Shown here: positions 5,206 to 55,480 of the stretch, piece by piece
Numbering within the stretch: position 1 is the first letter of the stretch
Layout of the letters: each line of letters opens with the position of its first letter
From: Kiritimatiellia bacterium
Lineage (GTDB): Bacteria; Verrucomicrobiota; Kiritimatiellia; RFP12; UBA1067
Reading direction: 5' to 3'
DNA: 64,000 nucleotides
Assembly: GCA_017450695.1 (NCBI GenBank)
Contig: JAFSTA010000168.1
Coordinates: forward strand, 17,826 to 81,825
Notes under the pieces: model-generated
Databases searched by the model: none
What the model was told of the DNA's origin: nothing
What the model saw: only the letters and a program-made list of their open reading frames with translations
Program-made: the position numbers and the translations under genes

Positions 5206-5640
5206 CAGCTGCGTAGCGACCGTGCCCTCGCCGTCGGCTTTCGGGGAAACTGGGTCAGATAAGTGGCGGTTGCACCGCCTAAGTGGTCTTGCGACCTAAA
5301 TGGGGCTGGCGCCACTAAGTTGACTTAGCCGCGAAGCGGCAGGCGTATGTCGTATGTCCTTTCCCTCACGCAGCGCGGACAAGTCGTTCAATCGGGGAAG
5401 CGACACTTGTCGCTTTTACGTGGCAACAGAACAGAATGAAGCGGCAGGATGAACTAAGAATGTAGAACTCGAAACTGATAGGCGAGCGTTATTGTATATT
5501 TGGACAACAACTTCAACAACGGATAGACAACTCGCTGGCGGTCGTCGCGCAACCGCGCGACGGTTCTTATCCGGCTTGCGGTTGCGAGCCGTCCGAATTC
5601 AAGGTTGTTCTCGATGTTGTTCCAGTTGTTTTCCGCTCAG
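5206..5640. repeat. Mosaic intergenic repeat block (modules A, TAAGT-punctuated hairpin array, B, X)
   Basis: A: 5206-5246 CAGCTGCGTAGCGACCGTGCCCTCGCCGTCGGCTTTCGGGG. Hairpin array: 5256-5340. B hairpin: 5394-5416 GGGGAAGCGACACTTGTCGCTTTT. X module: 5501-5640, near-identical in layout to 26625-26757. Confidence 0.85.
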
Positions 5641-11857: not shown

Positions 11858-12454
11858 ACGCTTCGCGGCTAAGTGCCCCTACGGGGCTAAGTGCGCTTCG
11901 CGGCTAAGTCACTTAGGCGGCGTTAGCCGCCACTTACTTCCTCCACCCATTCCTTGCCTATCAGTTCCGAGTTCTGCGCGGGACGAGACGGCGAGGGCAC
12001 CGTCGCTACGCAGCGGACGCGACGGAGCGCGTCCCAGAACTGGCGGCCATGCCGCCTTTCGTGTTCTTTCGTGTCCTGCGCCAGCGGGTTTTCGTGGTCG
12101 CGCGAAGCGCCACGCGTTGTCTCATGAGGAAATTGACACACCGTCGAAAAGCGACAGGAGTGTCGCTTCTCCGAAGAGAGGGGAAAATTCAATCGCTTCG
12201 CTTGAAATGGTTAAATGGTTAAATTGACGAGGCACAGAAATGCGGAGCGGATCAGACCGATTTAAAGCCGCGCCAGCGGCGATTTAACCATTTAACTATT
12301 TAACCATCCAAAGGTCGCGCGAAGCGCTAGATTCCGTGTGTTCCGTGTATTCCGTGGTTCAAATTGTCCAACAGAGAAAAGTTAAGTCACTTAGGCGGCG
12401 CCAGCCGCCACTTAGGGCGTCAGCCCACTTAGGCGGCATAGCCGCCACTTACAC
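11858..12454. repeat. Mosaic intergenic repeat block (two hairpin arrays, modules A, C, B, D, E)
   Basis: Hairpin arrays at 11858-11940 and 12381-12454. A (reverse) at 11987-12014, C (reverse) at 12013-12035, B (reverse) at 12146-12176. D long-inverted-repeat element at 12181-12312. E at 12331-12374 (ATTCCGTGTGTTCCGTGTATTCCGTGGTTCAAATTGTCCAACAG). Confidence 0.85.
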
Positions 12455-23000: not shown

Positions 23001-25370
23001 TTAGTGTTTTGCCGAAAAGCCTTGCAGGGGCTTCGAGGTTTGTCCGGTTTCTTGCGGAAGCCCGTCGGCCAAATACGAGGATGCCGCCAGCGTCCTCCCG
23101 TCCGGCATCCGGAAAGGGGCGTTCCCAAAGTTCACGGTCACGGTCACGCCGTTGGCGAAGACCGTCTGCTGCACGCTGCGGTCACGCCGCAGGAAACGGT
23201 GGTCGGTCATCTCGCTGTAGCCGGTCGCCCGTGCGATCGGCGAGGTGACGCGGTAACTCTCGACGAAGCGGTCTTTCCAGTCGCGCCACTTCTTGTTGTC
23301 GATCACGAACATCGGCGGGGTTCCGTAGAGCGCGTTGAAAAGGTTCTTCTTGTGCCAGAGGTCGGGCAGCTTGTTGCTGTTGTCGCCCCAGTACCACTGC
23401 GCCACGACGCACTCGTGGTAAACCAGTTCCCAGAGCGGGAGGCGGTAGCGTTCGCCGACGATGTACTTCGCCGTGCGCGGCGGCACGTTCGTCCAGGTCT
23501 GCGCGATGTTACGCCCCGAGTCCGGTACACGGTAGGGACCGATGCTCAACATCCCCTCGTAGTAGTCGCAGAAGGGAACGGAGGCGTCGTGTCCCGTCTC
23601 GCTGCCGACGACCAGGCCGAACTCGTCGCTCAGGATGCGGAGCAACTCCATCTTCCAGTGGCGGCTTTCGGAGCGCGTCAGCGGATGCGCGGGATTCCAG
23701 CACTCGTGCCAGGGGGCGGCGACCGTGGTGTCGATGAAACGCGTGTTGTAGGGCTTGACCTTCAACTCGTCTGAAACGTTCCGCCGCTCGTATTTCACTG
23801 CCGGCTGGTCGCACATCATCGCGCAGTAGGTCCAGGTGCCGTCGGGCGCCTTGACGCCCCAGGCGCGCGTCCACTCGTTGGAGGAGGGACCGGACCACAT
23901 GATGTCGTGCGGGTAGGCGTCGGAGTTCAGCCCCGGACCTTTCCAGCCGAGCTTCTTCATCTGCTCCGGGTAGTAGATGTCCTGATAGACGTCGTAACGG
24001 CTGACCAGCACGGTCGGGTTCTGGCTCAACGCCTTGATCTCTGCCGCGGAACCGCCGTCGCTCCAGAGGATACGCTCGATGCCCGCGTCCTGCATCTCCT
24101 GGACGAGCTGCAACTTGGGCCCGTGCCATCCGATGCTCCAGACGTTGACCGCGCCCAGTAGCTTGTCGATGTTGGGAACCTTCTTGACCTTTTCCGTGAA
24201 GGGCTTGAAGAGACCCTTCTGCTGCGCGTAGCGGCGGTAGCGTTTCGCCATCGCGACATGGCCGCCCGACTGCTGGAAGATGTAGCGGGCCTTGCGCGTG
24301 TAGCCGAACTGCCTCCGCTGGGGATCCCAGGAGGGGCAGTTGACCCAGAACCTGCCGACGCGATAGACGTTCATCGCCGCGTCGTCCGGCGTCTCCAGGA
24401 TGCACATCCACCCCGCGCCGGTGTCATCCTCCGCCACGCCGAAGAAGCTCATGCAGATCCCGTGGCCGCCGTAGGCGATCAGGCGGTACATCCCCTCGTG
24501 CGGTTCATCGACCGGATATCCCATGCCCTCGTTGATCGGCACGATCAGGCGGTCACCCTCCCGCGTCTTGAACGGAGCCGGGTAGTCGAACGAATGTTCC
24601 ATCTTGCCCTCGCCGTCGATGGAGACGGTGAGCTCGCCGGGGTGGTCCGCCCACGCGATCCGAACCCCGTAGGATGCCAGCGATTCCAGATTCGTCAGCT
24701 GGTAGGCGAGGCTCCTGCCGTCGCTCTTCAGGTTCGAGACGGCAAACTTGCCCGGCACGGCGGGCGTCCATTCGCGACCGGACTTGCGATCGGTCACGGC
24801 AAGGCCGCCCTTGGCATCTACCTGCGCGATCAAGGTGTCGTTGGTGATCGCCAGCGAATGGACGGAGAACGGCGGCAGCTCGCCGGTCTTCTCCAGCTTC
24901 GCGTTCGCGAAGAATGCCTCGATGTCGATTGCGCCGCCGACCAGACGAGCCTCGATGGTGGCACCGTTCGGCGGAATCGCGAAGGAGGTGGACTGCACGC
25001 CGCGCGACGTCGGCACGGTGAACAAGCGCGTGGCGTAGGTCCAGGACATCACGTCGTTGCGTGTGTCGCGCAGGATGACGGAGAGTTCGAGTTTCCCGAC
25101 CGCGCCCTTCGCGCCGGGACCGAGTTCGCAGCTGAGCGTGTAGGTCTCGTTCGGGCGGACTTTCTGCAAGGGGCAGATCACGACCGCCCAGTCCTGCTGG
25201 CCGGAGTAGTGCAGCAGATGCCCGTCCTGCGAGGGGGTGAGGGAAATGTGGTCTTTCCCCTGCCTTGCCCAGGACCTTGGGGTGAATCCCTCATCCGCGA
25301 ACAACGGCGCGGCGGCGAGAACGGTGGCGAGAAGGAGGGAGGTGGGGAGGGAGTGGACGTTTGGATTCAT
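23001..25370 (-). CDS. Secreted putative glycoside hydrolase, family unassigned (GH101/GH129-like or DUF5696-like)
   Basis: 789 aa with signal peptide MNPNVHSLPTSLLLATVLAAAPLFA. The acidic/aromatic catalytic-looking core (FIDTTVAAPWHECW, VVGSETGHDASVPFCDYYEG) and the operon context with other glycan enzymes support the call. The family assignment is tentative. Confidence 0.55.
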   Translation of the reverse strand: MNPNVHSLPTSLLLATVLAAAPLFADEGFTPRSWARQGKDHISLTPSQDGHLLHYSGQQDWAVVICPLQKVRPNETYTLSCELGPGAKGAVGKLELSVILRDTRNDVMSWTYATRLFTVPTSRGVQSTSFAIPPNGATIEARLVGGAIDIEAFFANAKLEKTGELPPFSVHSLAITNDTLIAQVDAKGGLAVTDRKSGREWTPAVPGKFAVSNLKSDGRSLAYQLTNLESLASYGVRIAWADHPGELTVSIDGEGKMEHSFDYPAPFKTREGDRLIVPINEGMGYPVDEPHEGMYRLIAYGGHGICMSFFGVAEDDTGAGWMCILETPDDAAMNVYRVGRFWVNCPSWDPQRRQFGYTRKARYIFQQSGGHVAMAKRYRRYAQQKGLFKPFTEKVKKVPNIDKLLGAVNVWSIGWHGPKLQLVQEMQDAGIERILWSDGGSAAEIKALSQNPTVLVSRYDVYQDIYYPEQMKKLGWKGPGLNSDAYPHDIMWSGPSSNEWTRAWGVKAPDGTWTYCAMMCDQPAVKYERRNVSDELKVKPYNTRFIDTTVAAPWHECWNPAHPLTRSESRHWKMELLRILSDEFGLVVGSETGHDASVPFCDYYEGMLSIGPYRVPDSGRNIAQTWTNVPPRTAKYIVGERYRLPLWELVYHECVVAQWYWGDNSNKLPDLWHKKNLFNALYGTPPMFVIDNKKWRDWKDRFVESYRVTSPIARATGYSEMTDHRFLRRDRSVQQTVFANGVTVTVNFGNAPFRMPDGRTLAASSYLADGLPQETGQTSKPLQGFSAKH

Positions 25371-26341
25371 TTTGAGGTCTCCGTAAACGGGCAGCGGACG
25401 AGAGAGTCATTGACCGGGTGTAACGTTTGTTCCGCTGACGAACAGGCGGGACGCGCCTGCGGACAGCGGTCGTGAAAGCGGCAGCCGGGCGGGAAGGCGC
25501 CGGCGTAGGGGACTTGTCCGGGAATCGCGCGCAGTTTCTGACCGCGCGTCTCGGCGGAGGGCAGCGCCTCCAGCAAGGCACGGGAATAGGGGTGTTGCGG
25601 ATGGGCGAAGAAACGCGCCGCGTCCTCGCAGGATTCGACGACTTGTCCCGCGTACATCACGGTGATCTTCGTCGCCATCTGATAGACGACCCCCATGTCG
25701 TGCGTGATCAGCAGCAATGCGCTGTTCTGTCGATAGAGCTTGCGCATCAGGTTCAGAATCTGCGCCTGGATCGTCACGTCGAGGGCGGTCGTCGGTTCGT
25801 CAGCGATAATCAGTTCAGGCTCCAGAATCAGCCCCATCGCGATCATCACGCGCTGCTGCATCCCGCCGGACAACTCGAAAGGGAAGGCCTTCGCGCGCTG
25901 TTCCGGGTCGGGGATGCCGACGCGACCCAGCCACTCCAGCGCCAGGTCGCGGCAGGCGGAACGGGAAAGGTTGCGGTGCAGGCGCACGACTTCGATCAAC
26001 TGGTCGCCGATGCGGTGCAGCGGCGAGAGCGAGGTCATCGGGTCTTGGAAGATCACGCCGATCTTCGTGCCGCGAATCTCGCGCATCCGTTCGATGGGGA
26101 GCGAGAGCAGGTTCTCTCCCTGAAAGAAGATCTCGCCCGACGTGATGCGGGCGGGCGGGGATGGGAGCAGACGCGGAATGGACATCGCGGTCGCGGATTT
26201 CCCGCAACCCGATTCCCCGACCAGCCCCAGCACCTCGCCGCGGTTCAGGGAGAACGAAACGGAATCCACCGCATGAGCCGGCGCCTGCCCCGGTTCATCC
26301 GAAAGGAACTCAACCGAAAGATTTTTGACTTCTAATAACAT
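25367..26341 (-). CDS. ABC transporter ATP-binding protein, oligopeptide/dipeptide (OppD/DppD) type
   Basis: Walker A GESGCGKS, signature LSGGMQQR, Walker B LIIADEPTTALD, and a C-terminal oligo_HPY-type region HPYSRALLEALP...CRFHDRCP. Confidence 0.9.
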   Translation of the reverse strand: MLLEVKNLSVEFLSDEPGQAPAHAVDSVSFSLNRGEVLGLVGESGCGKSATAMSIPRLLPSPPARITSGEIFFQGENLLSLPIERMREIRGTKIGVIFQDPMTSLSPLHRIGDQLIEVVRLHRNLSRSACRDLALEWLGRVGIPDPEQRAKAFPFELSGGMQQRVMIAMGLILEPELIIADEPTTALDVTIQAQILNLMRKLYRQNSALLLITHDMGVVYQMATKITVMYAGQVVESCEDAARFFAHPQHPYSRALLEALPSAETRGQKLRAIPGQVPYAGAFPPGCRFHDRCPQARPACSSAEQTLHPVNDSLVRCPFTETSK

Positions 26342-26757: not shown

Positions 26758-26886
26758 AGTCTAGGCGTGACCCTTTTCTTGCTGACCTTGATCAGATCGA
26801 ACACACGGATTTGCGCACGCCTACCGGCAGGGTTCCGAACTTCTTTCTTGCGACGGTCACAGGAATTTGGTAATTTGCTTTTGCTT

Positions 26887-28438: not shown

Positions 28439-28449
28439 CGCCGCCAGCC

Positions 28450-28764
28450 GGGTAAGCTGGGTAAGCGTGTTAAGCTGGTTAAGCGCGTTAGGCTGGGTAA
28501 GCGTGTTAGGCTGGCTGGCGCGATCCATCCTACGCAAGGAGGACAGGCCAGTGTGCTCCTCCCGATTCGGGCAACGAGGACGTTGCCCCTCCCATTCTCC
28601 GCGTGAGGCAAAACAATTACTCGCGTGAAGCGAGAGTGTCGCTTCCCCGAAAGCCGACGGCGAGGGCGCCGTCGCTACGCAGCTGGCGCGAAACGCCGCC
28701 TTTCGTGGTCGTGCGAAGTGCCCTATGCCGTGTATTCCGTGGTATGCAAATTGTCCAACAAATG
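28450..28764. repeat. Mosaic intergenic repeat block (about 11-bp periodic GGGTAAGC/GTTAAGC words, modules B, A, E)
   Basis: 28450-28518 GGGTAAGCTGGGTAAGCGTGTTAAGCTGGTTAAGCGCGTTAGGCTGGGTAAGCGTGTTAGGCTGGCTGG. B (reverse) at 28627-28649, A (reverse) at 28645-28685, E at 28727-28762. Confidence 0.85.
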
Positions 28765-36178: not shown

Positions 36179-36425
36179 CAGATAAGTGGCGGCTCCGCCG
36201 CCTAAGTGGGGCTGACGCCCCTAAGTTAGTAGCGAAGCGGTCGCTGGGGTTCGTCTCGGCCTAACCTGTCAACGTATAGGCAAGCCTAGAGGGGAAAATG
36301 AAATCGCGTCGCTTGAAATGGTTAAATGGTTAAATTGACGAGACACAGAAATGCGGAGCGGATCAGGCAGATTTAAAGCCTCCGAAGGAGGCGATTTAAC
36401 CATTGAACCATTGAACCATCCAAAG
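36179..36425. repeat. Mosaic intergenic repeat block (hairpin array + D long-inverted-repeat element)
   Basis: 36179-36245 reads CAGATAAGT-[GGCGG CTC CGCC]-TAAGT-[GGGGC TGAC GCCCC]-TAAGT... The D element at 36291-36425 is about 85% identical by eye to 12181-12312. Confidence 0.85.
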
Positions 36426-38372: not shown

Positions 38373-38580
38373 GGCGGCTGACGCCGCCAGCTGAGAAGCC
38401 GTGGCGGCTGACGCCGCCAGCTGAGAAGCTGAAAAGCTGAGAAGCAGATAAGTGGCCATGCGGGCCTAAATGGGGCTGGCCCCCCTAAGAGGCGCTACGC
38501 GCCAGTTCTGAGTTCTAAGGTCAGAGCTTTGTGCGGGACGCGCCCCGTCGCGACCGCAATACTTAACCCGCTTACCCGGC
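38373..38580. repeat. Mosaic intergenic repeat block (30-bp-period duplicated hairpin+GCTGAGAAG unit, hairpin array, module C, GCTTACCC words)
   Basis: GGCGGCTGACGCCGCCAGCTGAGAAGC occurs at 38373-38399 and again at 38403-38429. CAGATAAGT-hairpin-TAAAT-hairpin-CTAAGA-hairpin lies at 38444-38495. Module C at 38533-38563. ACTTAACCCGCTTACCCGG at 38561-38579. Confidence 0.85.
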
Positions 38581-46584: not shown

Positions 46585-47652
46585 GTGAGTCGATCGGGGA
46601 ACAGCAACCTTCACGATTCGTCGCGAAACAAGCAGGACGAGTTCTACACCAACCTCCAGCTCATCGAGGACGAGCTGAAGCACTACCGCGCGCACTTCAA
46701 GGGCAAGCGCGTCCTGTGCAACTGCGACGATCCCTACGAAAGCAACTTTTTCAAATATTTCGCGATGAGTTTCAATTCGCTCGGGCTGAAAAGCCTCACC
46801 GCGACGTGCTACGCGACAAGTCCCGTCGTGTACACACAGCTCGACCTGTTCGGGGAGGAGATGATCGTTGGCCGCAAAGGAACGCAAAGGGGGAAACAGC
46901 CCTACAAGATCGTCATAAACGAGGTCACGGACGTGAACGGGGACGGGCGCGTCGACCTTGCCGACGTGGAATGGCTCATCAAGAACAGGAAGAACGTGCT
47001 GACAAAGCTGAAGGGCGACGGCGACTTCCGCTCCGCCGAGTGCGTCGCGCTCCTCGACGAGGCGGACATCGTCGTCACCAACCCGCCGTTCTCGCTTTTC
47101 CGCGAATACATGGCGCTCCTGATGGAGCATGGCAAGCAGTTTCTCATCCTCGGCAACATGAACGCCGTCACCTACCGCGAGATATTCCCGCTCATTCGCG
47201 ACAACAAGGTGTGGCTCGGCAACAAGGCGGGGCATTTCTGGTTCAGGGTGCCGGACAGCTACGAGGAAAAGGCGACGGACTTCAAGATTGACGAGAACGG
47301 GCAGAAGTGGCGGCGCATGGGCAACATCTGCTGGTTCACCAACCTCGACATAGAAAAACGCCACGAGGAGATGACGCTCTTCCGCCATTATTCGCCGGAG
47401 GAATATCCCACATACGACAACTACGACGCGATAGACGTAAAGAAGACAAATGATATTCCTTGTGACTATCTAGGTGTAATGGGTGTGCCTATTACATTCA
47501 TGCAGTATTATTGCCCAGAACAATTTGACTTGCTTGGCGAATTTAATCATGGGCAAGATAACGAATTCGATTTGGCGGTTCCAAGTGTCAATGGGAAAGT
47601 AATGTTTAAGCGTATTGCAATTCGCCGCAAGCGGAAGGGGCAGGTAAAATGA
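46585..47652 (+). CDS. N6-adenine DNA methyltransferase, EcoRI-methylase family (PF13651-like)
   Basis: GTG start 46585 with AAGGAG at 46572-46577. NKQDEFYTNLQLIEDELKHYRAHFKGKRVLCNCDDPYESNFFKYF, catalytic VVTNPPFSLFREY (NPPF) and C-terminal GVMGVPITFMQYYCPEQFDLLG match the family pattern from memory. Confidence 0.8.
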   Translation: MSRSGNSNLHDSSRNKQDEFYTNLQLIEDELKHYRAHFKGKRVLCNCDDPYESNFFKYFAMSFNSLGLKSLTATCYATSPVVYTQLDLFGEEMIVGRKGTQRGKQPYKIVINEVTDVNGDGRVDLADVEWLIKNRKNVLTKLKGDGDFRSAECVALLDEADIVVTNPPFSLFREYMALLMEHGKQFLILGNMNAVTYREIFPLIRDNKVWLGNKAGHFWFRVPDSYEEKATDFKIDENGQKWRRMGNICWFTNLDIEKRHEEMTLFRHYSPEEYPTYDNYDAIDVKKTNDIPCDYLGVMGVPITFMQYYCPEQFDLLGEFNHGQDNEFDLAVPSVNGKVMFKRIAIRRKRKGQVK

Positions 47653-47955
47653 ATAACAACCGGATTTGTTCGCCGCTAACGCGGCTCACTGATGCGAGAA
47701 TGGCGAAGGCCGTTAGGCCTGAGCAAATCCGCTTGTTAAACACAAGCGAAACAATGAACAACAACCGGATTTGTTCGCCGCTAACGCGGCTCACTGATGC
47801 GAGAATGGCGAAGGCCGTTAGGCCTGAGCAAATCCGCTTGTTAAACACAAGCGAAACAATGAACAACAAACGGATTTGTTCGCCGCTAACGCGGCTCACT
47901 ATGCGAGAATGGCGAACGCCGTTAGGCGCGAGCAAATCCGTTTGTTGAACACAAA
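47649..47955 (+). repeat. Three tandem copies of a 105-bp hairpin-forming unit (between the methyltransferase stop and the GxxExxY gene)
   Basis: Units start at 47649, 47754 and 47859. Copies 1 and 2 differ at one position; copy 3 is diverged with a 1-nt deletion. Each unit has arms AACAACCGGATTTGTTCG / GAGCAAATCCGCTTGTT enclosing CTAAC...GTTAGGC. Copy 1 begins inside the methyltransferase stop codon. Confidence 0.9.
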
Positions 47956-47973
47956 CAAAGGAATGGAGGTTGT

Positions 47974-48423
47974 ATGATCCTCTACGAGGAAGAGACAAAT
48001 CGTATCATCGGCGCATGCATGGCTGTACACAACGAGTTGGGCAATGGATTCCTTGAAGCCGTTTATCAAGATGCTTTGGAGATTGAGTTTCGCGAACGAG
48101 CTATCCCCTACAGGCGCGAAGCGCATATACGAATATTTTATAAAGGGCATTTGCTCGACAAAGAGTATTACGCTGACTTCATTTGCTTTGACAAGATAAT
48201 CGTGGAATTGAAATGCGTGTCGCGTCTTGTGAATGCAAACAAAGCGCAAGTAATCAATTATCTGCACGGAACTGGACTCAAGGTCGGATTGCTTGTGAAC
48301 TTCGCTGAGGCATCGCTAAAGTGGGAGCGTCTCACAAATTTACGGAACATAAAGTCCCAAGAAGCAGCAACAAACGGATTTGCCCAGACCCAACCGTCTT
48401 TGCAATTTAGTGAGCGCCGTTAG
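47974..48423 (+). CDS. GxxExxY protein (PD-(D/E)XK-like, PDDEXK_3 / TIGR04256-type)
   Basis: 149 aa with RBS GGAGG at 47965-47969. The eponymous motif lies in HNELGNGFLEAVYQDAL (G-FL-E-AV-Y). Later YADFICFDKIIVELK matches the nuclease-fold core. Low GC (about 42-45% by eye). Confidence 0.8.
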   Translation: MILYEEETNRIIGACMAVHNELGNGFLEAVYQDALEIEFRERAIPYRREAHIRIFYKGHLLDKEYYADFICFDKIIVELKCVSRLVNANKAQVINYLHGTGLKVGLLVNFAEASLKWERLTNLRNIKSQEAATNGFAQTQPSLQFSERR

Positions 48424-48448
48424 GCGCGAACAAATCCGTTTGTTAAAA
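48369..48448 (+). repeat. Fourth, variant copy of the hairpin unit, spanning the GxxExxY stop codon
   Basis: The perfect 14-bp inverted repeat AACAAACGGATTTG (48369-48382) / CAAATCCGTTTGTT (48431-48444) has the same arms as copy 3 at 47859-47955. The inner GCGCCGTTAGGCGCG contains the TAG stop (48421-48423). The RBS of the next gene follows immediately. Confidence 0.85.
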
Positions 48449-48463
48449 CCAAGGAGCATCGAA

Positions 48464-49582
48464 ATGAACAGCAAGATGAAGATAAAGGAACACAAGATTC
48501 CCGTGCGGGAGGTGTTCGACGGGTATGTGGATTCGGCGGAGCTGGGCGTTCGCGGCTACGGCGGCAAGTTGAACATCCGTCCGGCGTTCCAGCGCGAGTT
48601 CGTTTACAAGCCCGCGCAGCGCGACGCGGTGATCGAGACCGTGCGGCAGGGGTTCCCGCTGAACGTCATGTACTGGGTGCGCAACGAGGAGGGCGGCTTC
48701 GAGATGCTCGACGGGCAGCAGCGGACTCTCTCCATCTGCCAGTACGTGAACAACGAGTTCAGCATCGACCACCACAAGTTCGAGAACCTGACGAAAGAGG
48801 AGCAGGAGGACATCCTCGATTACGAACTCACAATCTACATCTGCGAGGGCGAGGAGCGCGAGAAGCTGAAGTGGTTCGAGGTGGTGAACACCGCGGGCGA
48901 ACAGCTCAACGCGCAGGAACGCCGCAATGCGCAGTACACCGGCAGGTGGCTCCACGAGGCGAAGAAGCATTTCAGCAAGACGGGATGTGCGGCGGCGGCG
49001 ATCGGCGACAAGCTGCTGAACGGATCGGCCATACGTCAGGATTTCCTTGAAACGGCGCTTGCGTGGATTGCCGACCGCGACGGCGGTGACATCCTCGACT
49101 ACATGTCCGCGCATCAGCATGACGAAGACTGCTCCGACCTGTGGGGGTATTTCGAGAGCGTAATCAAGTGGGTCAAGGCAACGTTTCCCGTTCTGCGCGG
49201 TAAGTTGATGAAGGGGTTGCCGTGGGGCATATACTTCAACAGGTATGGGAATGAGAAACGCGACGCGGCGGCGTTGGAGAAGCGGATAACGCAACTTCTT
49301 CGCGACGATGAGGACGTGAACGACATAACGAACCAGCGCGGCATCTACGAGTATCTTCTCTCCGGCGACGAACGGCACTTGAGCATACGGCGCTTCTCCG
49401 ACAAGATGGCGCGGACGGCCTACGAACGGCAAGAGGGCAAATGCCAGAAGTGCGGCAAGGAGTTCGCCATCGAGGAAATGCAGGCCGACCACATCACGCC
49501 GTGGGCGAAGGGCGGCAAGACCGTCGCCGAGAACTGCCAGATGCTCTGCGCGGACTGTAATCGCCGCAAAGGAGGGGTGTAG
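48464..49582 (+). CDS. DUF262 (ParB/Srx-like, DGQQR motif) protein with C-terminal HNH endonuclease domain
   Basis: Start ATG 48464 (RBS AAGGAG at 48451-48456). The DUF262 signature is in FEMLDGQQRTLSICQY. C-terminal HNH: CQKCGKEF...ADHITPWAKGGKTVAENCQMLCADCNRRKG. Confidence 0.8.
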   Translation: MNSKMKIKEHKIPVREVFDGYVDSAELGVRGYGGKLNIRPAFQREFVYKPAQRDAVIETVRQGFPLNVMYWVRNEEGGFEMLDGQQRTLSICQYVNNEFSIDHHKFENLTKEEQEDILDYELTIYICEGEEREKLKWFEVVNTAGEQLNAQERRNAQYTGRWLHEAKKHFSKTGCAAAAIGDKLLNGSAIRQDFLETALAWIADRDGGDILDYMSAHQHDEDCSDLWGYFESVIKWVKATFPVLRGKLMKGLPWGIYFNRYGNEKRDAAALEKRITQLLRDDEDVNDITNQRGIYEYLLSGDERHLSIRRFSDKMARTAYERQEGKCQKCGKEFAIEEMQADHITPWAKGGKTVAENCQMLCADCNRRKGGV

Positions 49583-49586
49583 GAGC

Positions 49587-50711
49587 ATGACCGAGTTCGG
49601 AGAGTACAAGCGGGCGCCGGAGCCGGAGAAGCGTGAGAAGGCGATTGTCTGGCGTACAGCGATCGGTCTCCAGAAGGTTGACGGTCTTACGACCTCGGAG
49701 TATCTGCGTGAGACGGCGCGGCGCAATATCGAAGGTGAGATCACGATAGAAGAGAGCGGGGGGCTGATAGCCGAATACTACAAGTCCAAATCCGTCCGCG
49801 CATCGGCGGCGAAGACGCGTACGGACGAGGCTGATATTGTCTCGCAACGCATCGCCGCAATCCTCTCCGAACCGACATTCTCATTGACTGTTCCGTCCTA
49901 TCTGGCGATTCACCGAAAGTTGTTCCACGGGGTGTTTCCCCGCGCTGGAAAAATCCGCGACTACAACATCACGAAAGCGGAATGGGTCTTGGACAAAGAC
50001 ACTGTCCGCTACGAAAGTGCGGATGTAATCGCAGATACGCTGGAATACGAGTTTTCGCGACAAAGAAACTTCAGTTACAAGGGACTAGGTGTGTTGGAGA
50101 CGATTTCGCACGTGGCCCGCTTTCTTGCGGACGTGTGGCAGATTCATCCTTTCGGGGAAGGTAACACGCGAACGACAGCCGTCTTCGCAATCAAGTATCT
50201 GCGTTCGTTTGGTTTTCCAGTCACCAATGAATTGTTTGCGGAGAACGCCTGCTATTTCCGGAACGCCTTGGTCCGAGCAAACTATACGAATGTTCCGCGA
50301 GGCGTACATCGGACATTCTTCTGTTTGGAACGTTTCCTGGTAAACCTGTTGGCTGACGGAAAGTACGAACTCAAAAGCCGCTGCTTAAAAATTGGAGCGG
50401 AAGAGGTTCCGGATTCGCTTGTTCCCTCTAAAAAGGAACAAGAAGGGGAACAAGTAGAGTCGCCGCTGGGGGCGGTTATTCCCAGAGGGGTGAGGAGGCT
50501 TGTCAAGGTTCTGAAGAAGGAAATGTCTGTCGTCGAAATGATGATCGCGTTGAAGCTTGCCGTGCGGCGGAACTTTCTGGAGAAATACCTTTCTCCGGCA
50601 TTGGAGGCTGGTCTTGTAGAAATGACGCAGCCCGATTCGCCGCGTTCGCCCACGCAGAAATACCGTCTGACGGCGAAGGGACTTGAAATGCAGCTGGAAG
50701 GAGCAGTGTAA
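49587..50711 (+). CDS. Fic/DOC family protein with VbhA-like N-terminal segment and C-terminal winged-helix-like domain
   Basis: Fic motif region HPFGEGNTRTTAV (50145-50183), a variant of HxFx(D/E)GNGRxxR. Starts 4 nt after the DUF262-HNH stop with AGGAG upstream. The C-terminal segment MSVVEMMIALKLAVRRNFLEKYLSPALEAGLVEMTQP resembles a wHTH. Confidence 0.85.
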   Translation: MTEFGEYKRAPEPEKREKAIVWRTAIGLQKVDGLTTSEYLRETARRNIEGEITIEESGGLIAEYYKSKSVRASAAKTRTDEADIVSQRIAAILSEPTFSLTVPSYLAIHRKLFHGVFPRAGKIRDYNITKAEWVLDKDTVRYESADVIADTLEYEFSRQRNFSYKGLGVLETISHVARFLADVWQIHPFGEGNTRTTAVFAIKYLRSFGFPVTNELFAENACYFRNALVRANYTNVPRGVHRTFFCLERFLVNLLADGKYELKSRCLKIGAEEVPDSLVPSKKEQEGEQVESPLGAVIPRGVRRLVKVLKKEMSVVEMMIALKLAVRRNFLEKYLSPALEAGLVEMTQPDSPRSPTQKYRLTAKGLEMQLEGAV

Positions 50712-50827
50712 TGAAGACGGGAGAATTTTCGAGTAGATTTCTTCGCGGAAGGGAGAATCGAAATCCGGAAACGCGACAGAAGCGTTTCAGGTTCTGTTTT
50801 CTGTCACGGGAGTTTGGAGGATGTGAG

Positions 50828-55162: not shown

Positions 55163-55480
55163 TAGGGGCGTTTCGCGCCAGCTAAAAACGGGAGGGGCGC
55201 GCCCCGTCGCGTCCGCAATGCGGAACACGCTTTGCCTCTCAGCTCCGAGTTTGAAGCGATGCGTCACTGAAATGCGGGTAAGTTTGTCTCGCCTCACACC
55301 GTGGGAGGGGCGCGCTCCGTCGCGACCGCAACGTTTTCCCGGATTGTCCGGAATATCCGGAATGTCCGGTTTTTCCTGCTTATCCTGCTTACCCCGCCTC
55401 TCAGCTTCCCCGCTTCTCAGCTGGCGCGTAGCGCCCCCGCCTTTCAGCTTGCCCGGCCAACTGATCGGCGTAGCGCCCGA
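55163..55480. repeat. Mosaic intergenic repeat block between convergent argJ and ilvB (two C modules, CCGGAAT mini-palindromes, CTTCTCAGC and GCTTACCC words)
   Basis: C at 55190-55223 and 55303-55333. 55339-55369 reads CCGGATTGTCCGGAATATCCGGAATGTCCGG. 55371-55395 reads TTTTCCTGCTTATCCTGCTTACCCC. CTCTCAGCTTCC/CTTCTCAGCTGGCGCGTAGCGCCC lies at 55398-55435. The layout parallels 60765-60856. Confidence 0.85.

Follow-up and report, generated by a model that had tools for sequence, protein, structure and literature searches.

Hairpin-forming repeats accompany a GxxExxY gene in a 64,000-nucleotide stretch of contig JAFSTA010000168.1 (positions 17,826 to 81,825, forward strand) from a Kiritimatiellia bacterium, referred to here as the window. 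Three tandem units lie upstream of the gene and a fourth hairpin closes it, and these repeats are probably gene-less copies of a structured palindromic element, a selfish one with inverted-repeat ends and derivatives resembling miniature inverted-repeat transposable elements (MITEs). The reading draws on how the element is built, how its mini-hairpins covary, the association of its arms with GxxExxY genes, its dispersal in multiple copies with unrelated flanks, and the comparison of occupied with empty sites. The 105-bp units of the window would represent a tandemly amplified, gene-less form of a ~80-nt element, whose full version comprises a left arm, a ribosome-binding site, the GxxExxY open reading frame (ORF) and a right arm, ~0.55 kb in total. 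The family would insert between co-oriented genes, restriction-modification (R-M) operons above all, leaving many short MITE-like derivatives. It is widespread and apparently previously undescribed: a full-text literature search, with subscription-only papers outside its coverage, returned neither a description of the element nor a function for GxxExxY proteins.

Hairpin units and arm structure

An earlier description of the window made from its letters alone, hereafter the sequence-only reading, had reported three tandem 105-bp units, the first two nearly identical. Everything that it described is present in the sequence. At 47648-47954 Tandem Repeats Finder reports 2.9 copies with a period of 105 nt and 96% matches; identity between units 1 and 2 is 99%, and unit 3 is more diverged and carries a 1-nt deletion. 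The hairpins and their parts are as follows.

47649..47961: tandem array of three 105/104-nt units
47655..47737: hairpin copy 1, a gene-less left-arm/right-arm element (from sequence, folding and structure model)
47655-47672 / 47720-47737: outer stem of hairpin copy 1
47673-47684: left mini-hairpin of copy 1, CCGC-TAAC-GCGG
47708-47719: right mini-hairpin of copy 1, GGCC-GTTA-GGCC
47760..47842: hairpin copy 2, 99% identical to copy 1
47865..47946: hairpin copy 3, a variant with a perfect 20-bp outer stem, followed by the GxxExxY ribosome-binding site GGAGG
48369..48444: hairpin copy 4, with 14-nt perfect outer arms

Each array unit consists of a hairpin and a spacer of ~22 nt, which holds a truncated arm fragment (ACAAGCG) and an ATGAAC junction motif. 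Folding of the units is strong relative to shuffled controls (z = -4.4 to -5.5, equalled by 0 of 200 shuffles; -4.1 to -5.5 once the fourth copy, 48369-48444, is included), and the + strand of the window contains four occurrences of the right-arm motif GCCGTTAGGCNNGARCAAATCCG, against 0.00 expected from shuffles. The left arm of copy 4 (48369-48385) is degenerate and overlaps the last codons of the GxxExxY gene; its right arm (48408-48444) is intact. The stop codon of the gene, a TAG at 48421-48423, falls in that right arm, inside GTTAGGC, exactly as the sequence-only reading had stated. Over 37 nt this right arm matches the left arm of copy 3 at 89% in inverted orientation, so that inverted arms stand on both sides of the gene. 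The ATG that had been noticed ~20 nt after each hairpin is present, at about 16-27 nt, but for units 2 and 3 it is merely part of the repeat itself.

The number of units varies among contigs that are otherwise at least 99.8% identical, being one in L121, two in L119 and three in both L120 and the window; in L126 an N gap interrupts the array, and assembly collapse may be a partial source of this variation. Unequal recombination or slippage between hairpin copies would be the most likely origin of the array. The layout of the window is shared by L132, in which four 109-nt hairpin units precede the gene and a further hairpin overlaps its 3′ end. A single 99-aa ORF (47649-47948, + strand, MNNNRICSPLTRLT...) reads in frame through the array and spans the whole of it because 105 nt equals 35 codons. 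It has no family match, and the period in L132 is not a multiple of 3; it was therefore treated as non-coding and is probably not a gene. The Rfam search of 47500-48600, in a database that holds no attC model, gave nothing at gathering thresholds and chance-level matches (E>=0.5) when relaxed.

To define the structure of the arms, we joined the parts of 51 distinct arm pairs by fixed linkers and aligned the pairs on their loops; the alignment is gap-free, in the order outer left arm, left mini-hairpin, right mini-hairpin, outer right arm. Each arm is composed of a terminal inverted repeat of 13-19 nt ((A)ACAAACGGATTTG...) and a small hairpin that folds on its own. Pairing within the mini-hairpins reaches 95.7% and 97.6%, and each of them has 4-5 covarying pairs, both sides having changed in 12-29 of the 51 sequences and up to four pair types occurring at one position. 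Their loops, CTAACG on the left and CGTTAG on the right, are invariant and complementary to each other. The outer stem measures 14-20 bp, is perfect or has one mismatch, and shows neither unpaired spacer nor extrahelical bases; it covaries at several positions, for example from A-U to C-G in 17-18 sequences, and 11 columns are at or near invariance. A four-way-junction model pairs 89.8% of the cells, compared with 27-40% in slid controls, whereas a single continuous hairpin fails at the mini-hairpin stem columns, where 30-37 of the 51 sequences are unpaired. In place of the long imperfect hairpin proposed earlier for each unit, the comparison favours an outer stem with two mini-hairpins. On the sense strand of gene-bearing elements there are 28 G.U against 24 A.C combinations, and this lack of a G.U excess fits a role at the DNA level rather than in sense RNA only. 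We infer that the arms work as folded DNA, either as a cruciform or in single-stranded form.

This anatomy bears on an integron origin, which the sequence-only reading had raised and in which the hairpins would be attC sites for IntI, the 105-bp units empty cassettes and the GxxExxY gene a cassette ORF. Integron attC sites are likewise imperfect palindromes, of 60-140 nt, and GTTAGGC does fit the core consensus GTTRRRY, as had been claimed together with CTAAC as part of its inverse; GCCTAAC, present in many family members, fits RYYYAAC. These core-like motifs, however, are the loops of the covarying mini-hairpins, just 31 nt apart and inside a conserved, near-perfect outer stem of 16-19 bp, and not R boxes at a boundary. 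The outermost boxes do not pair as R″ and R′ would, cross-arm pairing fails in the columns flanking the motifs, and in place of extrahelical bases and an unpaired spacer the outer stem is conserved in sequence.

GxxExxY genes and their flanking arms

The gene bracketed by the arms encodes a small protein assigned to the PD-(D/E)XK nuclease fold.

47974..48423, + strand: GxxExxY protein, PD-(D/E)XK nuclease fold (PF13366, 4.5e-41; TIGR04256, 1.1e-42)

Among the follow-ups suggested by the sequence-only reading was a survey of other GxxExxY loci for flanking hairpins, and this revealed a strong association. A metagenome scan with the homologue alignment yielded 80 GxxExxY loci at 54-90% protein identity, and arm cores are present at 73 of them, with a chance expectation of ~0.03 per 300-nt flank. 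The left core starts 38-44 nt 5′ of the ATG in 37 loci, and the right core usually lies ~10-25 nt past the end of the protein match. In the commonest layout the ORF lies within one palindrome, in the order left arm, ribosome-binding site, ORF and right arm, with nothing but the ribosome-binding site and the ORF between the arms; a complete hairpin upstream of the gene, as in the window, occurs at about eight loci. The type of arm varies with the protein clade: with type A arms (CAAATCCGyTTG) protein identity is 68-90% at 27 of 29 loci, with type B arms (CGAATCCGTGTG) it is 54-65% at 34 of 35 loci, and loci with neither core carry other flanking inverted repeats (CCACAGATTACACAGATT...). From the opposite direction, tblastn over 774 kb around matches to the arm pattern found four segments of ~70% homologues at three loci, all abutting the motif, two of the segments being one interrupted gene in L073; a 36% homologue lies ~3.3 kb from the motif in L032. 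The order of parts differs among loci, being left arm, gene, right arm and right arm in L106; left-plus-right hairpin, gene, right arm and left-plus-right hairpin in L084; and left-plus-right hairpin, gene and right arm in L073.

More distant relatives, 30-41% identical and located on plasmids or chromids in other phyla, are again inserted between genes in co-orientation, and the repeats beside them differ in sequence. In Sphingomonas the gene stands between inverted repeats in a fatty-acid synthesis operon (fabD-[IR]-GxxExxY-[IR]-fabG, where IR is an inverted repeat), in B. finegoldii (Bacteroides) it lies between radA and a gene for an FAD-dependent protein, and Bernardetia likewise has a distant GxxExxY gene with flanking repeats. 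In L230 (Sphingomonas parapaucimobilis, NZ_CP155749, 482837-483265) the inverted repeats are composed of CGCGAAG motifs. The flanking repeats of relatives in Fusobacteria and Prevotella are direct, not inverted. A type B element is carried by Treponema saccharophilum pTS1, from a cultured rumen isolate, where it is annotated just as 'GxxExxY protein'.

Residues of catalytic type (E28, D68, E78 and K80) are conserved in the window protein, as judged from the homologue alignment. At 149 aa it is longer than the typical homologue (124-130 aa), its last ~20 codons running into hairpin 4, and the C-terminal tails of many homologues are read-through into an arm (NGFAQT, GFVR, PLGLSQSV, VSREQIR). The GxxExxY/PDDEXK_3 family is very large, with at least 7992 homologues at E<=1e-5, and a survey of PD-(D/E)XK enzymes lists its function as 'Unknown', with 'multiple transfers' (PMC3424549). 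The protein matches no PADLOC model, and the search of a phage collection gave no match.

Tandem structured repeats directly 5′ of a small nuclease-fold gene, a layout found both in the window and in L132, recall type III toxin-antitoxin (TA) loci such as ToxIN, CptIN and TenpIN, and the sequence-only reading had offered this as its second explanation: the repeats would be processed to antitoxin RNAs that neutralise the downstream nuclease. This is the least credible of the explanations considered, and it fails on several counts. The protein belongs to PDDEXK_3/TIGR04256 and not to the ToxN/AbiQ/CptN fold family; the repeats measure 105 nt, against 34-45 nt in the known systems; and the array is not conserved, most homologue loci having zero or one hairpin upstream (a lone left arm in 37 of 80) and near-identical strains having one to three units. 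Moreover, no promoter-like site before the array or terminator-like site after it was found in the window, and the repeat is dispersed genome-wide, at dozens of places that have no such gene.

Dispersal and insertion sites

The distribution of the hairpin family was determined by scanning 185,579 species-representative genomes with a 23-nt right-arm pattern. The right-arm motif occurs at at least 118 loci in at least six phyla of rumen and gut bacteria. Hosts among the matches listed, to which the counts per genome and per arm below also refer, are Kiritimatiellae, Treponema/Spirochaetia, Fibrobacter, Opitutia/Verrucomicrobia, Lentisphaerae, 'Myxococcales UBA4248', a Proteobacteria metagenome-assembled genome (MAG), Neisseriaceae and Oscillospiraceae; Fibrobacter intestinalis ATCC 43854 is one of the carriers. 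Several MAGs hold many loci: at least 43 in UBA4248, at least 12 in RGIG10161, and at least 11 each in RGIG2907 and AH.B6_3. Dispersed copies in UBA4248 span 250-350 bp, are 88-98% identical and have unrelated flanks; in RGIG10161 a 230-bp unit is present in at least 12 copies at 87-95% identity. Across these copies (230-350 bp, 87-98%) homology ends at the element, so that single genomes contain multiple dispersed copies in unrelated surroundings, and the terminal inverted repeats are common to the gene-bearing and the short gene-less forms. Of 153 right arms, 51 form full hairpins with a left arm within 90 nt, 26 belong to hairpins with loop inserts of 100-250 nt, and 61 are orphans without a partner within 1.6 kb. 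Neighbouring genes are diverse and include housekeeping genes (pgk, dnaJ, pdxS-like), many copies are solitary, and no common gene family emerged beside the dispersed hairpins. The sequence-only reading had held that a genome-wide MITE unrelated to GxxExxY genes would speak against both of its explanations; the family fits this in being genome-wide and MITE-like, though not in being unrelated to GxxExxY genes, to which it is linked.

The copies also vary in form. In UBA4248, L002 (2529-2915), L088 and L111 contain tandem arrays with up to nine copies of a 52-nt truncated unit, in which the first 7 nt of the left arm are fused to a complete right arm, and in other copies the loop is filled by (AATTCGG/AATGCGG)n microsatellites and by a conserved ~100-nt insert. 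In Opitutia AH.B6_3, a lone right arm lies within intergenic arrays of ~20-nt CCACCACCAACCC-type repeats (L074, 60-290; L035, 120-400); these arrays are a distinct composite repeat that re-uses the arm module. Many pattern matches fall within ~100 nt of contig ends and the contigs of close homologues are mostly <2 kb (P0001-P0120); short-read metagenome assemblies apparently tend to break at repeats of this family. The window itself holds an orphan, degenerate single arm (GCCGGTAGGCGTGCGCAAATCCGTGTGTT) at 26800-26828 on the - strand (motif 26806-26828), which sits between an ABC-transporter ATPase gene (25367-26341, -) and an AAA-ATPase_like (PF09820) gene, with no partner arm nearby.

The array and its gene lie in an operon of four co-oriented genes amid housekeeping genes (GH106, ArgJ, PlsX, C10 peptidase), and the features around the insertion are listed below.

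46585..47652, + strand: type II N6-adenine DNA methyltransferase of the EcoRI-methylase family (PF13651, E=1e-137; PADLOC MTase_II, 3e-124)
47653..48463, + strand: the whole inserted block of three hairpins, gene and fourth hairpin (comparison of empty with occupied sites)
48464..49582, + strand: type II restriction endonuclease with DUF262 (GmrSD_N) and HNH domains (Pfam; PADLOC REase_II, 7e-132, full length)
49587..50711, + strand: Fic-domain protein, the last gene of the operon (Pfam; PADLOC PDC-S72, 1.8e-119)

As judged from site comparison, the block interrupts a translationally coupled type II methyltransferase-endonuclease (M/R) pair, inserted in the ATGA overlap of the M stop and the R start. 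At the empty sites L214-L216, where the endonuclease is 91% and the methyltransferase 82% identical to those of the window (82% for L214), the two genes overlap in ATGA with no insert, and the same holds for L217-L221, with an endonuclease at 80% identity. The site is occupied in the window, L213, L129 and L131, so that orthologous sites are polymorphic for presence and absence of the element. In L213 (endonuclease 93% identical) the order is methyltransferase, hairpin with a 60-nt insert, GxxExxY gene (81% identical), hairpin and endonuclease. The methyltransferase stop TGA (47650-47652) lies within the ATGAA junction motif, and ~20-27 nt of the M-end/R-start junction (...AAGGAnnATCnAnATGAA) are found on both sides of the block (47631-47654 and 48444-48469); the methyltransferase thereby keeps its C-terminus and stop, and the endonuclease is supplied with a ribosome-binding site and start codon. 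Target duplications of 2-4 bp would be indistinguishable from extension of the palindrome (TT...AA). A terminator-like site follows the Fic gene at 50768-50788, and in type I R-M loci, GxxExxY elements often have relatives of this Fic type next to them.

Two further observations concern this junction. The 60-nt GC-rich palindrome of L213 (GGTAGGGGCACGCG...CGCGCGACCCTACC) sits in the loop of the hairpin upstream of the GxxExxY gene (2860-2945), which suggests that the hairpin loop is a permissive or preferred insertion point. In L222-L225, whose R-M endonuclease is 74% identical to that of the window, a YhcG/DUF1016 PD-(D/E)XK gene (~2383-3504 in L222) occupies the same M/R junction with overlapping stop and start codons; profile comparison of GxxExxY with this nuclease aligned only the D...ELK motif, at a probability of 2%.

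The insertion site completes the case on integron cassettes, which we consider very improbable. The family does cross phyla, its ORFs are promoter-less, co-oriented and bracketed by hairpins, and some loci show hairpin-gene-hairpin arrays. Yet the insertion boundaries fall outside the outer stem and not at G|TT, GTTRRRY is absent from the empty site, the ORF most commonly lies inside a single palindrome, and most copies are solitary and stand beside housekeeping genes. No recombinase, transposase, Phage_integrase match or intI was found in the window (28 large ORFs and precomputed Pfam assignments of genes within +/-10 kb). The cassette-like bracketing seen by the sequence-only reading is real in that the gene is flanked by hairpin repeats and behaves as an inserted, horizontally spread module; its identification as an attC cassette is not supported.

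Gene-bearing elements are co-oriented with both neighbours at 42 of 56 loci, the neighbours being mainly HsdM, HsdS, HsdR and Fic genes, and this raises the question of a function in RNA. The outer stem could pair the ends of the GxxExxY message within the host operon transcript, serving in processing (of RNase III type), insulation or stabilisation, comparable to Correia/ERIC elements and 23S rRNA intervening sequences; the mini-hairpin loops CUAACG/CGUUAG could be a kissing-loop or protein-binding module controlling expression, and gene-less hairpins remnants or mRNA stabilisers resembling repetitive extragenic palindromic (REP) sequences. Besides the co-orientation, such a role agrees with a window element that has no promoter or terminator of its own, with arms that directly follow the stop codon of the upstream gene and directly precede the ribosome-binding site of the downstream one, and with the covariation of local hairpins, according to which folding of a single strand matters. 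Correia and ERIC hairpins, moreover, are transcribed and processed. We nevertheless hold it unlikely as the primary explanation. The arms of gene-bearing elements lack the sense-strand G.U excess mentioned above, the orientation of dispersed hairpins is unbiased with respect to the genes beside them (++ 13, -- 15, +- 8, -+ 9), and multi-copy dispersal and cross-phylum spread would be left unexplained, DNA mobility still being required. The RNA-level role is less a competitor of the mobile palindromic element than a complement to it.

The intergenic regions of the window also contain short GC-rich palindromes of a second repeat family (TAAGTGGCGGCnnnGCCGCC and relatives), which is unrelated to the first. 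It occurs at 5260, 12037, 12432, 14306 and 36183, giving five matches where 0.24 are expected. Tandem-repeat rows of this family lie at 11859-11921, 12397-12451, 28446-28514, 36183-36226, 38373-38429 and 55387-55422. In this genome, the repeats may serve as terminators or be REP-like elements.

Probable mobility and relation to known systems

From the dispersal, the cross-phylum identity and the contrast of occupied with empty sites, we infer that the element is or was actively mobile. In its ends and derivatives it resembles insertion sequences (IS) and their MITE derivatives, such as Correia/NEMIS of Neisseria, ERIC and Nezha in cyanobacteria, which likewise have terminal inverted repeats and a hairpin-forming transcript or DNA. 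The likeness extends to dispersed gene-less copies of 80-350 bp in unrelated flanks, a longer one-ORF version with the same ends, and variants with loop inserts. In contrast to those systems, the ORF encodes a 125-aa PD-(D/E)XK protein and not a DDE, HUH or serine/tyrosine transposase, there is no consistent target-site duplication, the ends have covarying sub-terminal mini-hairpins with fixed loops, and near-identical arms occur in different phyla. The arrangement also recalls REP/RAYT systems (REPtron/REPIN), in which a gene is flanked by inverted palindromic repeats that are otherwise scattered without the gene, and in which single-strand folding appears important. RAYTs, however, are Y1 HUH enzymes, where here the protein is GxxExxY/PD-(D/E)XK, and REPs are 20-40 nt long and vertical within species, compared with the ~80-nt, two-mini-hairpin, cross-phylum family described here. 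A further parallel is offered by ORF-carrying 23S rRNA intervening sequences (S23p/four-helix-bundle, PF05635), whose flanking-repeat stem encloses either nothing (~100 nt) or a small ORF from a paralogue-rich, horizontally spread family, and which are tolerated inside a host transcription unit; the present elements differ in standing between protein genes rather than in rRNA helices and in having GxxExxY as cargo.

Several observations weigh against a mobile element with a GxxExxY enzyme. We observed no transposition event, no target-site duplication and no excision product, and a long flank duplication is not general among 32 independent loci (p=0.73), the M/R junction with its imperfect ~20 nt being the single case. 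GxxExxY is outside the known transposase families. The sequence search of the PDB returned 0 matches, and thus no solved relative, while the shallow-alignment AlphaFold model (predicted local distance difference test score, pLDDT, 60.5) was too poor for fold comparison, Foldseek finding nothing in the PDB below E=0.9. The distant homologues L227 and L231 have direct rather than inverted flanking repeats, and co-orientation within operons is equally expected of an element acting in RNA. Finally, hairpins are far more numerous than GxxExxY genes, and no GxxExxY remnants were detected in the 100-450-nt loop inserts of gene-less copies (E>2), so that these inserts lend no support to an origin of the copies by internal deletion.

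The last two points would also suit two independent parasites, namely a REP/MITE-type hairpin moved by an unrelated enzyme and a GxxExxY gene of homing type that targets the apical loop of the hairpin. The abundance of orphan arms (61 of 153) and the capacity of the loop to take other inserts (~150 nt in UBA4248, the 60-nt palindrome in L213) agree with this. Such a partnership is nonetheless rather improbable, for arm type and protein clade co-vary nearly perfectly, distant GxxExxY genes have their own, different flanking repeats, and the presence of just a ribosome-binding site and ORF between the arms would leave the 'inserted gene' without ends of its own.

With regard to the enzyme behind the palindromic element, the tight, co-evolving association of gene and arms and the conserved catalytic-type residues suggest that the GxxExxY nuclease may recognise or cut the arms, a role that we put forward tentatively, as possible rather than probable, and the nuclease might itself move the element. 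The wider proposal, more doubtful still, is that GxxExxY proteins (TIGR04256/PF13366) could be the structure-specific nucleases of a previously unrecognised class of cross-phylum mobile elements of ~0.55 kb. Such elements would have ends that fold into a four-way junction, would insert precisely between co-oriented genes, as in R-M operons, between fabD and fabG, and between radA and the gene for an FAD-dependent protein in B. finegoldii, and would leave MITE-like hairpins behind in large numbers.

Fixed, covarying arms that travel with a gene turn this proposal, GxxExxY as the structure-specific nuclease of a selfish element, into a testable hypothesis, and cultured carriers exist in Treponema saccharophilum pTS1 and Fibrobacter intestinalis ATCC 43854. 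The element follows an IS/MITE-like or REP/RAYT-like logic in which the enzyme is unusual and the ends are structured. Such inserts split R-M and other operons, and the coupling of methylase and endonuclease expression may change as a consequence. If the hypothesis is true, a large family of 'unknown' proteins would gain a function, and one class of odd, low-complexity C-terminal protein tails would be explained as read-through into the arms.

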